Shown here piece after piece: positions 2,163 through 62,003 of a stretch of 64,000 bases of DNA. Below the pieces are notes generated by a model that ran no database searches, had not been told where the DNA came from, and worked only from the letters and a program-made list of their open reading frames with translations. The position numbers were made by a program, and so were the translations under genes. The DNA is from Candidatus Eiseniibacteriota bacterium (GTDB lineage: Bacteria; Eisenbacteria; RBG-16-71-46). The first letter of the stretch is position 1. The number at the start of each line of letters is the position of its first letter. The stretch spans positions 6,679 through 70,678 of the forward strand of contig JBGPFC010000005.1 of the NCBI GenBank assembly GCA_041483195.1, read 5' to 3'.

Positions 2163-3770
2163 TCAACCGGGCGTGCGCCCGGGTTCGGAGGCCGATGCGG
2201 GCGGGGCCTCCCTGGCGGGTGTTCTGAGGTTCAGGCCCACGATGGTGTCGAGCACGTCGAGCGTCCAATCGAAGATGTTCCGGCGCAGCACCGTCTCGCG
2301 CAGCGCCGCCATGCGCTCGCGGCGCCCGTCGGCCGGCTCGGAGAGCGCGTCGTGGTACGCGTCCGCCAGCGCCTCGCGGTCGAAGGGGGAGACGAGCCAG
2401 GCCCGCTCGAGTTCCCGCGCCGCGCCCGTGAAGGGCGACAACACGAGCGCGCCCTCGAGATCGGGCGAGGCGGCGAGGTATTCCTTGGCCACCAGGTTCA
2501 TGCCGTCGTGGAGCGACGTCACCGTGCACAGGTCCGCCATGCGGTAGTAGGGGACAAGTTCGCGGAAATCGAGATTGCTCTCGATCAGGTGCACCGTGGG
2601 ACCCGCCGCGCGCGGGTAGCGGCGGTTGATGGTCTCGGCCCAGCGGCGCGTCCGAAGCTTCACGTTGCGGTACTCTCGCAGCTCGATGCGGGACGGCACG
2701 CCGATCTGGATGAAGACGAGTCGCCCCCGCCACTCGGGGTGCTTCTCGAGCAGCCGATCGAGCGCCTCGAACCGCTCGGGAATTCCCTTCGTGTAGTCGA
2801 GCCGGTCCACCCCGAGGACGATCTTGCAGCCCTCGAGCCCCAGTCGCTCGCGGATATCGGCCTCGGCCCGCCGCGTCTCCGCGGTCTCCGCGAGGGCCGC
2901 GATCTGCTCGGCGTCCACGCTGATCGCGACCGGGTGCACCCAGGTGCGCCGGCCCGCGCGGTCCACCGCCAGCCGCTCGAAATCCACGCGCGCCTCGAGC
3001 GATTCCGCGACGCTGTCGAGGAAGTTCATCGCGTGGCGGCGGATGTGGAATCCCACGAAGTCGTTCGCCAGCATTCCGGCGAGGACCTCTTCCTTCCAGG
3101 GCAAGACGCGGAACGCCTCGGGATTGGGCCACGGAATGTGCCAGAACATCGCCACCTGAAGATCGGGACGTTTCTCTTTGATGAATCGCGCCGCCAGCGC
3201 GAGGTGGTAGTCCTGAATGAAGACCAGCGCCGGCAGGTCGCCGACTTCCTCGAGCACTGCCTCGGCGAAACGCAGGTTGACCTTCTGGTATGACCTCCAG
3301 TCCGCGATGCGGAACAGCGGCCGCACGTACACGACGTGGCACAACGGCCACAGCGCGCTGTTGGCGAACCCCGAGTAGTAGTGAGCGTGATCCGCGTGCG
3401 TGAGCCAGAGCCGCCGCAGGGTGTAGCGAGGGCGATCGGGCGGACACGCGATCCGATCGTGGGCGTCCACCACCTCGCGGTCGGCATCGCCGCCGCCGTG
3501 GGCGACCCACACGCCGCCCAGCGCCTGCATGACCGCATCGAGCGCGACGGTCAGCCCGCCCGCGTTGCGGATCGCGCGGAGCTCGCCGTCCACGCGCTGA
3601 TGCGAGTAGGGCTCCCGATTGGAGACCACGACCAGCTTGCGGTTCGGGAGATGGGCCTGAGCCCAGGCGACGAGGTCGGCCTGCGTCGTACGCGGAGGAC
3701 CCTCGCTTCGCTGTTGCGTTCGAATCGCGGCGCGGCTGAGTGCCGAGCGAGCCCTCTCGGCAAGGTCCAC
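2163..3770 (-). CDS. otsA: alpha,alpha-trehalose-phosphate synthase (GT20)
   Basis: 535 aa carrying KLVVVSNREPYSHQ, GGLTVALD, FWHIPWPNPE and LHDGMNLVAKEY, all diagnostic of OtsA/TPS. Confidence 0.9.
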   Translation of the reverse strand: MDLAERARSALSRAAIRTQQRSEGPPRTTQADLVAWAQAHLPNRKLVVVSNREPYSHQRVDGELRAIRNAGGLTVALDAVMQALGGVWVAHGGGDADREVVDAHDRIACPPDRPRYTLRRLWLTHADHAHYYSGFANSALWPLCHVVYVRPLFRIADWRSYQKVNLRFAEAVLEEVGDLPALVFIQDYHLALAARFIKEKRPDLQVAMFWHIPWPNPEAFRVLPWKEEVLAGMLANDFVGFHIRRHAMNFLDSVAESLEARVDFERLAVDRAGRRTWVHPVAISVDAEQIAALAETAETRRAEADIRERLGLEGCKIVLGVDRLDYTKGIPERFEALDRLLEKHPEWRGRLVFIQIGVPSRIELREYRNVKLRTRRWAETINRRYPRAAGPTVHLIESNLDFRELVPYYRMADLCTVTSLHDGMNLVAKEYLAASPDLEGALVLSPFTGAARELERAWLVSPFDREALADAYHDALSEPADGRRERMAALRETVLRRNIFDWTLDVLDTIVGLNLRTPAREAPPASASEPGRTPG

Positions 3771-31179: not shown

Positions 31180-31255
31180 GGGCGATTAGCTCAGTTGGTA
31201 GAGCACTTGCTCGACAAGCAAGGGGTCACTGGTTCAAGTCCAGTATCGCCCACCA
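31180..31255 (+). tRNA. tRNA-Val (anticodon GAC), CCA encoded
   Basis: GGGCGAT/ATCGCCC acceptor stem, GCTC...GAGC D-arm, anticodon stem CTTGC/GCAAG with loop TCGACAA, and a TTCAAGT T-loop. Position 33 reads C rather than the usual U. Confidence 0.8.
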
Positions 31256-38543: not shown

Positions 38544-38697
38544 GCATGGCACCGCCCCGCGACCGCACGCCGGCGCGCGGAGGCGCCAGCCGCGCCGCGC
38601 CCGGCCTTCTGTTCCCGCCGCGCAGTTGCTACATTCCGAGATTCGCGTCGAACCCGCCGCGGGTTCCGGCGCCGAACCCGAGGCCCGAGGATTCCCC

Positions 38698-41124
38698 GTG
38701 AAGCTGCCGATCTCCTGGCTGCGCGAATGGATCGAGCTGGACGCGACGGCGGAAGCCGTGGCGGACGCGCTCACCCGCCGCGGCTTCTACGTCGAGGGCA
38801 TCGAGACCCACGGCCATGCGTACCCGGGCGTCGTGGTCGCGCGCGTGATCGAGGTGAGCCGCCATCCGAACGCCGACCGCCTGTCGCTGTGCCGCGTGGA
38901 CGGAGGCGCCGGCGAGCTGCAGGTGGTGTGCGGCGCGCCGAACGTGACGGCCGGAATGCTCGCTCCGCTCGCCACGGTGGGCGCGCGGCTTCCGAACGGC
39001 GTCGTGATCGGCGCCAGCAAGATCCGCGGCGTGGAGAGCCAGGGCATGCTGTGCTCCCCGCGCGAGCTCGAGATGTCGGACGAGCACCAGGGCATCCTCG
39101 ATCTGGTGGCGCATCTCGGCAGCGGCGAGGGCCTGACCGCGGGGCGTCCGCTCGATCAGCTGCTGGGCCCGGCCGAACAGGTGCTCGAAGTCGAGGTGCC
39201 GTTCAATCGCCCCGACGCGCTCGGCATCGTCGGACTCGCCCGCGAGGTCCGCGCGGCGCTCGACGGGCGCTGGACCGCCGCCGCGAGCGCGCGGCTCGCG
39301 AACCGCTGGCAGGGCCGCGCCGACTTCGACCTCGAGCTGGAGGACGCGGAGGGTTGTCCGCGTTACCTCGCGCAGGTCGTCGAGGAGATCGAGGTGGTCC
39401 CCTCGCCGGCGTGGCTCCGGCGCCGCCTGGAATCCATGGGCCAGCGCGCGATCAACCTGATCGTGGATCTCACGAACTTCGTGCTGTTCGAGTACGGGCA
39501 GCCGCTCCACGCGTTCGACCTCGCCTCGCTGCGCGGCCCGGCGATCCGCGTGCGCCGCGCGCGGGCCGGCGAGCGCATCGTCACGCTCGACGCGAAGGAT
39601 CGCGCGCTCGATCCGGAAGTGCTGGTGATCGCCGATCGAGAGCGTCCGGTCGCGATCGCGGGCGTCATGGGGGGCGCCGAGACCGAGGTGACGAGCGCGA
39701 CGCGAACGCTGCTGCTCGAATGCGCGTGGTTCCACCCGCGGCGCATCCGCCGCGGCGCACGCGCGCTCGGTCTCGCCACCGAGGCCTCGAAGCGCTACGA
39801 GCGCGGCGTGGACCCCGAGATCGGGCCGGCCGCAGCGGCGCGCTTTCTCGCGCTGCTCAAGGAAACGCTGCCCGGCGTCCGGCCCGCCGCAGCGCGCGAG
39901 CGCAATACGCTCGACGGCAAACGGCGAACGCTCACGCTGCGCCCTTCGCGCTGTACGCGGCTGCTGGGCCTCGCCGTCACCGCGCCCGAGATGAGGCGAC
40001 ACCTCGAGAGCTTCGAGTTCGCGGTCGAGGCCGGCGATCCGCTGCGCGTCACGGTGCCCCCGTGGCGCTCCGACATCGCGTTCGAGGACGACCTGGTCGA
40101 GGAGGTGGCGCGGGCGAACGGCTACGATCGCATCCCGGAAGCGCCGCTCGAGACGCGCGGCCGCTACGCGACGCGTTCCGCGCTCGAGCGCACGCTCGAA
40201 GCGGCGCGGGTCGCGATGCTGGCGCGCGGCCTCACCGAAGCCTGGACGACCTCGCTGCTCGGCGAACGCGAGGCGCTCACGACCGCCGGGCTGCTCGGCG
40301 AGGAACCCCGGCTGGTGCGCCTGCGAAATCCGATGAGCCGCGAGGGCGAGTGCCTGCGCCCGAGCCCGGTGGCCGGCCTGTTGCGCGCCTGCGCGCACAA
40401 CCTCCGGCAGGGTCGCGCCGCCGTGCGACTCTTCGAAGTGGGGACCGGGTTCCGCGATCTCGGCGGGAAGCTTCCGGAGGAGCGACCCATGCTCGCGGCG
40501 CTGGTGACCGGCGCACCGGACGCGCACGCCCACGATCCGGCCCGGCCGCCGGTGGACTTCGAGCAGGCGAAGGGGCTGTGGGAGGCGTGGCTCGACGAGA
40601 TGCGCGTTGACACCCCCCAATGGCGGACCTATTCTGCGCCCGGCTGGAAACCCGGTGCCAGCGCGGAGGTTGCAAGCGGCACTTCGCGCATTGGTTGGAC
40701 GGGGACGCTGAGCCAGTCGCTGCTCCGTGAGTGGGACATCGAGGTCCCCGCGCGCCACGACGTTCATCTTTTCGTGGCGCTTCTGGAACCGCTCTCCCGT
40801 TCCGAGGCGGCGCGCCCTCGGGTCCTGCTCCCCGGGCGCTTCCCGCCGGTTCGTCGCGATGTCGCCTTCTTCGTTCCCGAACACGTGACCCATCGCGAAG
40901 TCGAACAGGCGCTGGCCGGCGCGGCCGGGGAGCGGCTGGCCTCGATCGAGGTGTTCGATGTCTACGCGGGTCCCGGCACGCCGAAGGGCATGAAAAGTCT
41001 CGCGTACGCGCTTCAGTTCCAGCATTCTGAGCGCACGTTGACGGAAGCCGAAGTTCAAACCATCCAGGATCGCATGACGGCGGCCGTGACCGCAGCGTGC
41101 GGCGGCCAATTGAGAGAACGATGA
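38698..41124 (+). CDS. pheT: phenylalanine--tRNA ligase beta subunit
   Basis: GTG start with a GAGGA ribosome-binding site 6 nt upstream. MKLPISWLREWIEL, a tRNA-binding OB fold, B3/4, B5 and FDX-ACB domains. The ORF's 24-codon upstream extension is rejected. Confidence 0.88.
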   Translation: MKLPISWLREWIELDATAEAVADALTRRGFYVEGIETHGHAYPGVVVARVIEVSRHPNADRLSLCRVDGGAGELQVVCGAPNVTAGMLAPLATVGARLPNGVVIGASKIRGVESQGMLCSPRELEMSDEHQGILDLVAHLGSGEGLTAGRPLDQLLGPAEQVLEVEVPFNRPDALGIVGLAREVRAALDGRWTAAASARLANRWQGRADFDLELEDAEGCPRYLAQVVEEIEVVPSPAWLRRRLESMGQRAINLIVDLTNFVLFEYGQPLHAFDLASLRGPAIRVRRARAGERIVTLDAKDRALDPEVLVIADRERPVAIAGVMGGAETEVTSATRTLLLECAWFHPRRIRRGARALGLATEASKRYERGVDPEIGPAAAARFLALLKETLPGVRPAAARERNTLDGKRRTLTLRPSRCTRLLGLAVTAPEMRRHLESFEFAVEAGDPLRVTVPPWRSDIAFEDDLVEEVARANGYDRIPEAPLETRGRYATRSALERTLEAARVAMLARGLTEAWTTSLLGEREALTTAGLLGEEPRLVRLRNPMSREGECLRPSPVAGLLRACAHNLRQGRAAVRLFEVGTGFRDLGGKLPEERPMLAALVTGAPDAHAHDPARPPVDFEQAKGLWEAWLDEMRVDTPQWRTYSAPGWKPGASAEVASGTSRIGWTGTLSQSLLREWDIEVPARHDVHLFVALLEPLSRSEAARPRVLLPGRFPPVRRDVAFFVPEHVTHREVEQALAGAAGERLASIEVFDVYAGPGTPKGMKSLAYALQFQHSERTLTEAEVQTIQDRMTAAVTAACGGQLRER

Positions 41125-41420
41125 CCGAAACCCCTCAGCTGATGCAGAGCGATCTCGACCGGCTCGCCGAGCGCGTCGAGAAGGCGGCGGCGCTGGTGCA
41201 ATCGCTCCGCGATGACCGCACGCGCCTCGAGCGCGAGCGCGACGAGGTCGCGCGTCGCATGCACGATCTCGAACAGAAGCTTCAGGGCCAGGACGCGTCG
41301 GCGCTCCTCCAGGAGCTGAGCGCGCTCAAGCGCGAGCAGCGGGAGTGGACGAGCGAGCGCCGCGACGTGGCCTCTCGAATCGAGTCGCTGGTCAAGAAGC
41401 TCGAGCGACTCGAGGGCTGA
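41121..41420 (+). CDS. small coiled-coil protein (ZapB-like?), translationally coupled to pheT
   Basis: ATGA overlap at 41121-41124. The heptad-rich sequence LDRLAERVEKAAALVQSLRDDRTRLERERDEVARRMHDLEQKLQ... sits immediately upstream of zapA. Confidence 0.55.
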   Translation: MTETPQLMQSDLDRLAERVEKAAALVQSLRDDRTRLERERDEVARRMHDLEQKLQGQDASALLQELSALKREQREWTSERRDVASRIESLVKKLERLEG

Positions 41421-41537
41421 ACCCTGCCCGCTCCGCGGCGCTCCGTGGCGAATCGGCCGCGGAGGGCGGGCGGAACCGGACAGGCCGACCACAACGACAT
41501 CATGGAACGCAGGGAAACGCGGTGAAGCGAGGGTCCC

Positions 41538-41840
41538 ATGGACGCCAAGAATCTGGTCCAGGTCCAGATCTTCGGTCATAGCTACAGCATTCGCGGCGAA
41601 GCGGATCAGGCCTACATCCTGGAAGTCGCCGCGTACGTCGACCGCAAGATGCGCGAGATCACCGAGAAGCTCCCGGTGGCCTCGCTGTCCAAGGTGGCGA
41701 TTCTCGCCTCTCTCAACATCGCAGACGAGCTGTTCAAGGAGCGCGCGCGCCAGCAGACCCAGTCGCAGCAGCTGACCCATCAGGCGGCGCGTCTCAACGC
41801 GGTCCTGGATCATTTGCTCGAGGACGGCCCATCGCGATGA
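41538..41840 (+). CDS. zapA: cell division protein ZapA
   Basis: VQVQIFGHSYSIRGEADQAYILEVAAYVDRKMREI...VAILASLNIADELF is the canonical ZapA pattern. Confidence 0.8.
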   Translation: MDAKNLVQVQIFGHSYSIRGEADQAYILEVAAYVDRKMREITEKLPVASLSKVAILASLNIADELFKERARQQTQSQQLTHQAARLNAVLDHLLEDGPSR

Positions 41841-41871
41841 TGGGAGGATCGTAGCCAGCAGCCTCACCGTG

Positions 41872-42068
41872 TAATCCCTGCCGTGCTCGTGATGCCACAA
41901 CGTTCTTGAACCAACACTTTCGTTCAGGGTGATCCGGTGGCCGGCGACGTCGAGCCGCGGCTCCCGCGAGGGAACGCGGAGGACCGACCCGGTCGTAAGG
42001 AGCACCCACCTGGCTCGCCAGGTCTCAAGAACGAGCGGGCACACGGCAATTCGGCGGGGAGTTGTTCC
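41872..42068 (+). ncRNA. ssrS: candidate 6S RNA (SsrS) or other structured ncRNA in the zapA-rny intergenic region
   Basis: The 278-nt non-coding gap shows long-range complementarity. 41880-85 GCCGTG pairs with 42042-47 CACGGC. 41901-12 CGTTCTTGAACC pairs with 42021-33. The two helices are separated by an asymmetric 15-nt bubble on the 5' strand, with internal hairpins such as CCGCG-agggaa-CGCGG. The motif TTGAACCAA...GTTCAGGG resembles a segment of E. coli 6S RNA, and zapA-ssrS synteny is classic. Confidence 0.4.
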
Positions 42069-42118
42069 CTGCCTGCGGCCCCGGGGCGTTCGCGCTCCGG
42101 GGCGCGGGGGAGATCGGA

Positions 42119-43681
42119 ATGAACAACCTCACCTGGATCGGCGGCATCGCCATCGGTGCCGTCTTGGCGTTTGCGGCGGGCTACCTGCTCCGCGCGCGGC
42201 TGGGACGTCTCAAGCTGGACAGCGCCGAGCGGCAGGCGCGCGGACTGCTCGAGCAGGCGGCGCGCGACGCCGAGGGCGTGAAGCGCAACGCGGTGCTCGA
42301 AGGCCGCGAGGAGGCGCTGCGGCACAAGCAGCAGGTCGAGCGCGAGACCCAGGCGGCGCGCGGCACCCAGCTCGCGGCCGAACGGGCGTTCCAGGAGAAG
42401 GAAGCGGCCTTCAATCGGCGCGTCGAGCTGATCGAGAAGAAGGACCGCGACCAGAAGCGCGTCGAGCAGGAGATCGCAGCGCGCGAGCAGGCGGTGTCCC
42501 GCCGCAACGGCGATCTCGACCGGCTGATCGGCGAGCAGACCACGCGCCTCGAGAAGATCGCGGGGCTCAGCGCGGACGAGGCGCGGGCGCAACTGCTCGC
42601 GAGCATCGAGAGCGAGGCGCGGGCGGAGGCCTCGCGGCTGGTCGCCGAGGTGCGCGACAGCGCGCAGCGCAACGCGGAGCGTGAGGCGCGAAAGATCATC
42701 ACGCTCGCCATCCAGCGCTTCGCCGCCGATCACGCCTCCGAATCGTCGGTGTCCGTGGTCCATCTGCCGAGCGACGACATGAAGGGCCGCATCATCGGTC
42801 GCGAGGGCCGCAACATCCGCTCGTTCGAGATCATCACCGGGGTGGACGTCATCATCGACGACACGCCGGAGGCCGTGATCCTCTCGGGCTTCGACCCGGT
42901 GCGCCGCGAGATCGCGCGGCTGGCCCTCGAGCGGCTGGTCGCCGACGGCCGGATCCACCCCGCGCGCATCGAGGAGGTCGTGGCCAAGGTGCGGACCGAG
43001 GTCGAGAACAAGATCCGCGAGCTGGGCGAGATGGCCTGCCTCGAGGTCGGCGTTCACGGTATCCACGCGGAGCTGCAGAACACCCTGGGCCGGCTCCACT
43101 ACCGCACGTCGTACGGGCAGAACATCCTGCGCCACTCGATCGAGGTCGCGCACCTCGCGGGGATGATGGCGGCCGAGATCGGCATGGACCAGAAGATGGC
43201 GAAGCGCGGCGGGCTGATGCACGACATCGGCAAGGCGATCGACCACGACCACGAGGGGACGCATCCGGCGCTCGGCATGGAGCTGGCCGCCCGTTTCGGC
43301 GAGCCCCAGCCGGTGCTCGAGGCGATCGGCTATCACCACGACGACTACTCGGGCGGCAGCCTGTGGCCGGTGCTGATCTCGGCGGCCGACGCGATCTCGG
43401 GCGCTCGCCCCGGCGCCCGGCGCGAGAGCCTCGAGATCTACATCAAGCGCCTCGAGGCGCTCGAGAAGATCGCGAACGGTTTCCCGGGCGTCGAAAAGTC
43501 GTACGCGATCCAGGCCGGGCGCGAAGTGCGCATCATGGTCGAGCACGGCCGGGTGGACGATGCGCGCGCCCAGGGGCTCGCGAGCGAGATCGCGCGCCGG
43601 ATCGAGAAGGAGCTCCAGTATCCGGGCCAGATCCGCGTGACCGTGATCCGCGAAACGCGCGCCGTGGACTACGCGAAGTAG
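42119..43681 (+). CDS. rny: ribonuclease Y
   Basis: N-terminal TM helix, a coiled-coil, a KH domain ([15 protein letters not shown]) and an HD domain ([17 protein letters not shown]...LMHDIGKA). Confidence 0.92.
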
Positions 43682-43687
43682 GCGCGC

Positions 43688-45373
43688 GTGCTCAATCTCC
43701 TCTTCATCGCCGACGTCATCGGCTCGCCGGGCCGCGAGGTGGTCCGCGCGCTGCTGCCCGGGCTGCGCCGCAGGCACGACATCCACCTGGTGATCTGCAA
43801 CGCCGAGAACTCGGCGGCCGGATTCGGAGTCACCCGCGACGTGGCGCGCGAGCTGTTCGACTCCGGCATCGACGTGCTCACCGGCGGCAACCATCTGTGG
43901 GACAAGAAGGACTCGATGGACTACCTCGCCGATGAGCCGCGACTGGTGAGGCCCGCGAATCTTCCTCCGGGCACGCCGGGCGAGGGCTATCGCGTGTTCA
44001 AGGCGGCCGACGGCACGCCGGTGGCGGTGGTGAATCTCCTGGGCCGCGTCTTCATGAAAGAGGCGGACTGTCCGTTCCGGGCGATGGACCGGGTGCTCGC
44101 CGCGCTCAAGGATCAGTGCAAGGTCGTCGTCGTCGACTTCCACGCCGAGACCACCGCCGAGAAGGCGGCGATGGGCTGGCACCTCGACGGCCGCGCGAGC
44201 GCCGTGCTCGGCACCCACACCCACGTCCAGACCGCGGATGATCGCGTGCTGCCGAACGGCACGGCGTTCATCTGCGACGCGGGCATGACGGGCGGATTCG
44301 AATCGGTGATCGGGATGGACCGTCACGCCGCGCTGCGGCGGTTTCTGACGCTGCTGCCCGAGCGTCTCACGCCGGCGGGCGGCGATCCGCGCTTCAACGG
44401 CGTCGTGTTGCGGATCGATCCGGCGACCGGCCGCGCGCACTCGATCGAACGCCTCCAGATCCCGCACGCGCCCCCGCCGAAGGACGGCGCCCGCCGCCTG
44501 AGCGGAGAAGAACCGGCGATCGCGGTGCGGTACGCGGCGCGGCTCGAGGTCGAGCAGCTGATCACGGCCGGGGTCACGCCCGCGCTGGCGCTGATCTCGG
44601 TGGGCGAGGATCCCGCATCGAGGATCTACCTCAAGCGCAAGGCCGAGGCCTGCGCCGAGGTGGGGATCGCGGTCCGCCGCGTCTCGATCGAGGCCGGCGC
44701 CGACACCGCGGGCGTGATCGAGCGGGTGCGCGCGCTGGGCGCCAATCCGGACGTGCACGGCATCCTGATCCAGCTCCCGCTCGCTCCGCCCCTGGACCCG
44801 CGGGCAGTGCTCGAAGCCATCCCGCCCGGCAAGGACGTCGATGGATTCCATCCGGTCAACGCCGGCGCGCTCGCGCTCGGGCTGCCGGGATTCGTGCCGG
44901 CGACGCCGCGCGGCATCCTCGAGCTGCTGCGCTACCACCAGATCCCGCTCGCCGGAAAACACGCGGTGGTGCTGGGCCGCAGCAACATCGTGGGGCGGCC
45001 GCTCGCGACGCTGTTGTCGAGCCGCGGCGTCGACATGACGGTCACGCTCGGTCACAGCGCGAGCGGCCTCGCGCTCCCCGCGTTGGCGCGCGAGGCCGAC
45101 GTGCTGGTGGCCGCGATCGGCCGGCCCGAGTTCGTCACCGCGGACTGGGTGAAACCCGGCGCGACCGTGGTGGACGTGGGCATGCATCGCGTGCCGTCGC
45201 CGGACGATCGCCGCGGCACTCGCCTCACCGGCGACGTCGACGCGGCTGCGGTCGCGCGGGTCGCGGGGGCGCTCACCCCGGTCCCGGGCGGAGTGGGGCC
45301 CATGACGGTCGCGATGGTGGTCGCGAACACCGTGCTGGCCGCACAGCGTCAGGCCGCCGCCGCGAAGGTGTGA
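43688..45373 (+). CDS. folD: fusion protein: YmdB-like metallophosphoesterase (aa 1 to about 262) fused to bifunctional methylene-THF dehydrogenase/cyclohydrolase FolD (aa about 280-561)
   Basis: GTG start. The N-terminal half aligns along its whole length with B. subtilis YmdB (ADVIGSPGR, NAENSAAGFG, GGNHLWDKK, DFHAETTAEK, GTHTHVQTAD, DAGMTG). After a linker HAPPPKDGARRLSGEEP with no stop and no internal ribosome-binding site or start, a complete FolD follows (ISVGEDPASRIYLKRK, DVDGFHPVNAG, GRSNIVGRP, TPVPGGVGPMTVAMV). Confidence 0.85.
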   Translation: MLNLLFIADVIGSPGREVVRALLPGLRRRHDIHLVICNAENSAAGFGVTRDVARELFDSGIDVLTGGNHLWDKKDSMDYLADEPRLVRPANLPPGTPGEGYRVFKAADGTPVAVVNLLGRVFMKEADCPFRAMDRVLAALKDQCKVVVVDFHAETTAEKAAMGWHLDGRASAVLGTHTHVQTADDRVLPNGTAFICDAGMTGGFESVIGMDRHAALRRFLTLLPERLTPAGGDPRFNGVVLRIDPATGRAHSIERLQIPHAPPPKDGARRLSGEEPAIAVRYAARLEVEQLITAGVTPALALISVGEDPASRIYLKRKAEACAEVGIAVRRVSIEAGADTAGVIERVRALGANPDVHGILIQLPLAPPLDPRAVLEAIPPGKDVDGFHPVNAGALALGLPGFVPATPRGILELLRYHQIPLAGKHAVVLGRSNIVGRPLATLLSSRGVDMTVTLGHSASGLALPALAREADVLVAAIGRPEFVTADWVKPGATVVDVGMHRVPSPDDRRGTRLTGDVDAAAVARVAGALTPVPGGVGPMTVAMVVANTVLAAQRQAAAAKV

Positions 45374-61926: not shown

Positions 61927-62003
61927 GCGCCCGTAGCTCAATTGGATAGAGCGTTAGCCTCCGGAGCTAAAGGTTACAGGTTCGATTCCTGTCGGGCGCA
62001 CCA
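61927..62003 (+). tRNA. tRNA-Arg (anticodon CCG), CCA encoded
   Basis: Acceptor stem GCGCCCG/CGGGCGC, anticodon stem TTAGC/GCTAA with loop CTCCGGA, and a TTCGATT T-loop. Confidence 0.85.

Follow-up and report, generated by a model that had tools for sequence, protein, structure and literature searches.

The segment 41872-42064 (+) of the window, i.e., of the whole stretch of 64,000 nucleotides that was analysed, is very probably (at roughly 0.9) the canonical 6S RNA (SsrS) of a Candidatus Eisenbacteria-like bacterium, an RNA that would be expected to bind RNA polymerase and to template a short product RNA (pRNA). When the whole window was searched with Rfam 15, the model RF00013 (6S/SsrS) matched this segment over its full length (model positions 1-187 of 187) with 67.5 bits and an E-value of 3.5e-11, the gathering score being 46.4, and the match lies on the same strand as the two flanking genes, zapA and rny. 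A preliminary description of this DNA had proposed a 6S RNA in the gap between these two genes and had named a search with Infernal and RF00013 as the way to check it; the outcome of that search bears the proposal out. The ends of the segment are those of the Rfam model and have to be read as predicted gene bounds, not as transcript ends. Apart from RF00013, the search of the whole window returned two tRNA genes and nothing else, and it disclosed no second copy of 6S RNA, the match to RF00013 being single. A permissive Rfam search of the region 41780-42200 (E <= 10, both strands) revealed no credible competing family at the 6S locus: no model of a riboswitch, of a leader, of an Ms1-like RNA or of any other curated RNA family gave a credible match, and the only other match was a chance-level one to a CRISPR-repeat model (14 bits versus 39, E 5.6). 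The 6S RNA of the window is a routine member of a well-known RNA family, and standard annotation would call it. The features of the locus are collected in Table 1.

Table 1. Positions in the window of the 6S RNA gene, its structural parts and the surrounding genes
Feature	Position	Strand	Basis or remark
zapA, upstream neighbour	41538..41840	+	Pfam ZapA, 80 bits, E 1.6e-22
Spacer from zapA stop to 6S 5' end, 31 nt	41841..41871	+	sequence
6S RNA (ssrS) gene, predicted	41872..42064	+	RF00013 match, MFE z, covariation in 67 relatives
Closing stem, 5' strand	41873..41890	+	pairs with 42043-42062, Rfam-projected
Downstream helix P2, 5' strand	41902..41912	+	pairs with 42021-42032; almost invariant; 99% paired
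Central bubble, 5' side, 14 nt single-stranded	41913..41926	+	unpaired in Rfam consensus alignment
Internal and apical stem, terminal loop ~41960-41974	41927..42007	+	helices 4-6
3'-bubble hairpin ACCUGG-CUCG-CCAGGU	42008..42023	+	99% paired in 67 relatives
Closing stem, 3' strand	42043..42062	+	Rfam-projected, covariation
Second conserved GC-rich hairpin	42065..42111	+	folds; not described earlier
rny Shine-Dalgarno GGGGGAG, 6 nt before ATG	42106..42112	+	sequence
rny (RNase Y), downstream neighbour, ATG 42119	42119..43681	+	Pfam RNase_Y_N, KH, HD
YmdB-FolD fusion ORF, 561 aa, next after rny	43688..45373	+	Pfam YmdB 5-256, THF_DHG_CYH 272-555
tRNA genes, two, unrelated to 6S	31180-31252; 61927-62000	+	70.8; 73.9 bits

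Projected onto the window sequence, the Rfam consensus pairs describe a rod some 190 nt long, in which a long closing stem leads through a central bubble to a variable apical stem. The 193-nt segment has a minimum free energy (MFE) of -98.5 kcal/mol; its z-score is -4.82, and 200 dinucleotide shuffles, with a mean of -75.8 kcal/mol, include no fold as stable. The long irregular hairpin of about 190 nt that had been proposed is thus real. Several of its parts had been recognised as well. The 12-bp helix 41901-12/42021-33 coincides exactly with a helix of the Rfam projection, where C42024 forms a bulge, and is 99% paired in 67 relatives; the single-stranded bubble of about 15 nt on the 5' strand is present as the 14 nt listed in Table 1, and the apical GC hairpins correspond to the GC-rich internal and apical stems at 41927-42007. 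The closing helix had been placed at 41880-85 (GCCGUG) with 42042-47 (CACGGC); these two segments are perfectly complementary, but the register is wrong: the Rfam model and the MFE structure both give a much longer stem (41873-90 with 42043-62), in a register that is well paired across relatives. Helices 1 and 2 of this stem show 88.7% and 93.5% pairing, respectively, among the 67 relatives, with changes on both sides in seven pairs. The sequence of the 5' side of the bubble varies among relatives, and the 3' side corresponds to 42008-20. The internal and apical region (helices 4-6), in which 13 pairs have changed on both sides in the 67 relatives, is the most variable part of the RNA and takes up insertions of as much as ~70 nt. 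GC-rich insertions of 30-70 nt into the apical stem can be seen in L145 (1422-1684), L093 (1329-1580), L086 (2833-3072) and other loci, with conserved flanks and a total length of up to 263 nt.

The closest RNase Y loci in reference genomes belong to Candidatus Eisenbacteria MAGs (74-83% identity), and the rny product of the window is 83% identical to one of them. A 6S RNA passing the Rfam threshold lies directly upstream of rny in three of four close Eisenbacteria relatives (L001, L002 and L004). In the fourth one, L003, whose RNase Y and ZapA are 74% and 65% identical to those of the window, there is no room for a 6S RNA between the two genes (2573-3001), zapA running to ~100 nt before rny; the zapA-6S-rny arrangement is, therefore, not universal. 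The Rfam threshold is also passed in MAGs labelled Myxococcales, Nitrospinota and Victivallales, where rny is more distant.

A larger set of relatives was chosen independently of the RNA, by a metagenome scan with a ZapA protein alignment, which yielded 80 loci with 73-86% ZapA identity. When these were searched by nhmmer with the window 6S as query, the element was found 3' of zapA wherever the contig offered enough sequence, and the six loci devoid of a match are contigs ending at zapA or within ~80 nt after it. In all the 60 informative loci, i.e., those extending far enough, the order is zapA, a median of 28 nt, 6S RNA, a median of 70 nt, and rny. The conserved zapA-ssrS neighbourhood invoked by the preliminary description is confirmed in the window and in E. 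coli, and it holds in 60/60 informative relatives. In the window, the distance from 6S RNA to rny is 54 nt and the whole gap between zapA and rny measures 278 nt. This gap had been said to hold no plausible ORF, and this is how it appears: the ORFs within it are mechanical (e.g., 61 aa at 41937-42122), and no reading frame is conserved, since the 6S segments of the relatives range from 185 to 263 nt and their differences in length are not multiples of three.

The covariation of zapA-downstream regions, which had likewise been put forward as a check, was analysed on the 67 distinct full-length 6S copies, aligned with MAFFT from the sequence only. The Rfam-projected structure has 90.2% of its cells paired in this alignment, versus 37.7-51.4% in slid controls, in which the 3' partners were shifted by one to three columns. 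Changes on both sides are found in 22 of the 50 pairs (165 cells), versus 7-15 pairs (37-78 cells) in the slid controls, and none of 500 shuffles reached any of the observed covariation measures. Most of the covariation comes from the outer closing stem and from the stems of the internal and apical region, and the downstream helix is nearly invariant on both strands. The 6S fold is supported by this analysis, compensatory substitutions having preserved its architecture among the relatives.

Such data bear directly on the possibility that the segment is just GC-rich intergenic DNA that folds by chance and does not function as RNA. Any stretch of a GC-rich genome folds stably, as witnessed by the shuffles themselves, which still average -75.8 kcal/mol; against this stand the z-score relative to the same dinucleotide shuffles, compensatory changes far above both the slid and the shuffled controls, a match to a curated covariance model with an E-value of 3.5e-11 and the retention of the element in every informative relative. 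As far as computation goes, the chance-fold reading is already refuted by the Rfam match and the covariation, and we assign it hardly any probability. It is also very unlikely, although somewhat less so, that the RNA is 6S-like in its rod shape with a diverged function and binds, for instance, the core of RNA polymerase, in the way of Ms1, or a different partner. An Rfam score reflects shape and sequence rather than activity; Rfam-based 6S candidates are regarded as tentative until verified, and a genuine 6S RNA has to bind the housekeeping RNA polymerase holoenzyme in a sigma-dependent manner (PMC10578484). Nevertheless, the most conserved sequences of the family, CCCACCUGG...CCAGGU-UCAAG and the closing stem, sit at the positions expected by the model, no other Rfam family was matched at E <= 10 apart from the CRISPR-repeat model at chance level, and the synteny is that of ssrS. 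The window combines a full-length covariance score, a rod of ~180-200 nt, compensatory substitutions, predicted refolding elements and a zapA neighbourhood, features by which membership in the 6S family is judged.

In a third reading, the structured region would act only in cis, as a 5' leader through which RNase Y expression is controlled on the rny mRNA, and would not accumulate separately as a trans-acting 6S RNA. Several observations point in this direction: the segment lies on the same strand as rny and 54 nt upstream of it, with no terminator or promoter consensus in between, its linkage to rny holds in all 60 informative close relatives, and the neighbouring hairpin extends over the Shine-Dalgarno of rny. 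However, the match to the 6S model is full-length and above the curated threshold, and the conserved features are the bubble and the helices of 6S RNA rather than those of any known leader. In other phyla, the RNA is found ~1 kb (L069) or ~2 kb (L032) away from rny, so that it is not merely a leader of this gene; moreover, the 6S RNA of E. coli adjoins a different downstream gene, and excision from an mRNA precursor is normal for 6S RNA. The leader reading is therefore given about as little credit as that of a diverged function, and a 6S RNA embedded between zapA and rny remains the preferred interpretation.

In regard to the biogenesis of this 6S RNA, no sigma-70 promoter consensus was found in the region 41000-42600, although the promoter rules of the host phylum may differ, and a scanner detected no intrinsic terminator in the same region. 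A promoter of its own was considered for 6S RNA and rejected, given the lack of such a consensus and of any block of conservation within 130 nt 5' of the RNA in the 67 loci, where the only pattern is the codon periodicity inside zapA. Since neither a promoter nor a terminator is recognisable, the RNA is most likely processed from a zapA-ssrS-rny co-transcript, even though the absence of a sigma-70 consensus is no proof of co-transcription. In E. coli, RNase E/G and exonucleases are known to produce the mature 6S RNA from longer precursors; in a similar way, the 6S RNA of the window would be cut out of the longer zapA-ssrS-rny transcript. The E. coli ssrS transcript, to judge from the title of a paper on it, reportedly undergoes Rho-dependent termination, with implications for 3' processing and the expression of the downstream gene.

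If the RNA works as other 6S RNAs do, its mechanism can be outlined from the structure. A 6S RNA mimics an open promoter in the active site of the housekeeping holoenzyme, and it is released when the polymerase makes a pRNA on the strand formed by the 5' bubble and the downstream helix, upon which the RNA refolds (PMC10578484; PMC8876501). The rod of the window would accordingly imitate an open promoter and fill the active site of the polymerase carrying the housekeeping sigma factor, sequestering the enzyme when nutrients are scarce. With a rise of NTPs, the polymerase would copy the 5' bubble and the 5' strand of P2 (~41902-41917) into a short product RNA; this synthesis would unzip P2, let its 3' strand refold into the ACCUGG/CCAGGU hairpin and set the polymerase free. 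The putative template, which comprises the 5' strand of P2 (41902-41912) and the adjoining 41913-41917, reads GUUCUUGAACC and is nearly invariant among relatives; a candidate pRNA would be complementary to ~41902-41917, e.g., 5'-GUGUUGGUUCAAGAAC-3', or to a nearby register.

The 3'-bubble hairpin competes through three of its pairs with the top of P2, the shared nucleotides being 42021-23. These three shared pairs and the conserved pairing of the hairpin (Table 1) match the release mechanism described for other 6S RNAs (PMC8876501; PMC10578484), as far as folding models can tell. The hairpin is predicted in 64/67 folds in which the template was blocked and already in 63/67 MFE folds of the free RNA; blocking of the template thus adds little. 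[quoted passage not shown] This helix is predicted in only 19/67 relatives, and it was rejected as a conserved feature of the lineage.

Immediately after the 6S RNA, the spacer preceding rny contains a second conserved hairpin, which the preliminary description did not mention. Its outer helix is formed by UUCCCUGC and GCGGGGGA, and its inner stem by 42078-88 with 42093-103, closed by a UUCG loop. The 3' strand overlaps the rny Shine-Dalgarno, which is mostly paired in the predicted ensemble (unpaired probability of 0.02-0.38 at 42105-42110). The 6S-rny spacer is strongly structured and no random stretch: in 60 loci, its fold has a median z of -3.43, versus -0.47 and -0.76 for coding controls of the same length taken from the same loci. 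The spacers of the relatives measure 46-102 nt; the base helices of the hairpin are conserved, and its interior varies in both sequence and length. At the 3' end, the spacers carry (G)CGGGGGA, a stretch that folds back to pair and that overlaps with the Shine-Dalgarno of rny; at the 5' end, they carry a C/U-rich motif, which is exactly UCCCUGCC in about a third of them and a close variant of it in most.

The covariation of the outer helix gave a null result, the native partners pairing at -14.7 kcal/mol versus -14.6 kcal/mol for swapped ones, and 1739 of 5000 permutations equalled or surpassed the native pairing. With the 5' strands shuffled, the energy was -13.6 kcal/mol, i.e., almost the native value, and RNAalifold, run on two sub-groups of these hairpins, found two and zero pairs changed on both sides, respectively. 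The swapped-partner test thus offers no evidence for a specific pairing of the outer helix beyond composition. An intrinsic terminator was also considered for this hairpin and discarded, since no U tract is present (in the 60 loci, U runs within the spacer are at most 1-4 nt long) and the terminator scanner was negative.

The motif UCCCUGCC forms a direct repeat in the window, occurring at 41875-82, in the 5' end of the 6S RNA, and at 42066-73, just after its 3' end; a short A/U-rich linker precedes each copy. In the 67 relatives, the 5' copy is exact in 61, and the downstream one is exact in 21 and has a close variant in 48. The repeat may represent a shared processing signal. A switch in which the 3' strand of 6S RNA would pair with the downstream copy was modelled and set aside: a local hairpin is possible (-17.1 kcal/mol), but an approximate forced state, built on an off-register pair list, is ~15 kcal/mol worse overall, and the switch is kept as a weak idea.

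With low confidence, we regard the second hairpin as a boundary or processing hairpin, which would mark the border with the rny message, cap its 5' end and partly mask its ribosome-binding site. A further, rather doubtful step would be to consider zapA, ssrS, the hairpin and rny as a single processed unit, where the hairpin might couple the excision of 6S RNA to the stability or translation of the rny mRNA, possibly within an autoregulatory loop of RNase Y. Among the loci examined, only the Eisenbacteria-like ones, for which the spacer folds were computed, showed the tight 6S-hairpin-rny unit.

The gene following rny is a single ORF in which a metallophosphoesterase (YmdB) and a methylene-THF dehydrogenase/cyclohydrolase (FolD) are joined. 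This fusion is conserved in L002, L003 and L004 and in the distant MAG L054; in L005, ymdB and folD are adjacent and separate, and in the Gemmatimonadota L016 and L018, folD comes after rny. In E. coli, the gene after ssrS likewise encodes a folate enzyme. Directly upstream of zapA there is a 107-aa coiled-coil ORF (41097-41420), which weakly matches ZapB with 21.3 bits, below the Pfam cut-off of 31.5. It is preceded by an 832-aa ORF at 38626-41124, which is putatively pheT; if so, pheT-zapA would be a gene order known from Firmicutes.

The import of these data lies mainly in annotation: a standard 6S RNA is placed in the uncultured phylum Candidatus Eisenbacteria. No published mention of a 6S RNA in this phylum was found in the literature searched, which is explained by the phylum being unstudied and does not make the element a new kind of RNA. 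If anything here is new, it may be the conserved 6S-hairpin-rny unit alone; if it were true that the hairpin gates RNase Y expression, a global regulator of transcription would be linked to the main enzyme of RNA decay.

The comparison with E. coli 6S RNA (ssrS, b2911) reveals the same RF00013 family by covariance model and the same rod with a central bubble, in spite of only 77 identical columns out of 197 aligned. In both organisms, zapA lies upstream in the same orientation and the spacing is nearly the same, with zapA at 41 nt from ssrS in E. coli and at 31 nt in the window; the distance to the next gene is 75 and 54 nt, respectively, but this gene is fau (5-formyl-THF cyclo-ligase) in E. 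coli and rny in the window, where, unlike in E. coli, a second conserved GC hairpin follows the 6S gene. A segment CTTGAACCAA...GTTCA(A/G)GG had been noticed for its resemblance to part of E. coli 6S RNA. It does occur there, but not at a homologous position: in E. coli, it spans nt 134-152, on the 3' side, whereas here it spans nt 35-58, on the 5' side and on the opposite strand of the rod, and it was rejected as a sign of homology. A 3'-bubble hairpin competing with the downstream helix is common to the two RNAs; that of E. coli has 9 bp and forms only after unwinding, whereas that of the window has 6 bp and is predicted already in the free RNA (PMC8876501 for E. coli).

In this last respect, the window resembles 6S-1 RNA (bsrA) of Bacillus subtilis, a host that also uses RNase Y, in which a small 3'-bubble hairpin exists in the free RNA (PMC8876501). 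The collapse helix, too, has been described for 6S-1 RNA (PMC8876501), whereas here it is predicted with the template blocked and in a minority of the relatives only. The genomic context is different in B. subtilis, which has two paralogues, while a single copy is found in the window. Lastly, zapA and ssrS are linked not only in E. coli but also in distant phyla: in a Myxococcales MAG (L020, 69.5 bits) and in a Nitrospinota MAG (L069, 95.8 bits), a 6S RNA above the Rfam threshold is located directly 3' of a zapA homologue and, as in the window, upstream of rny, from which it is separated by ~400 nt and ~1 kb, respectively, versus ~70 nt in the relatives of the window.
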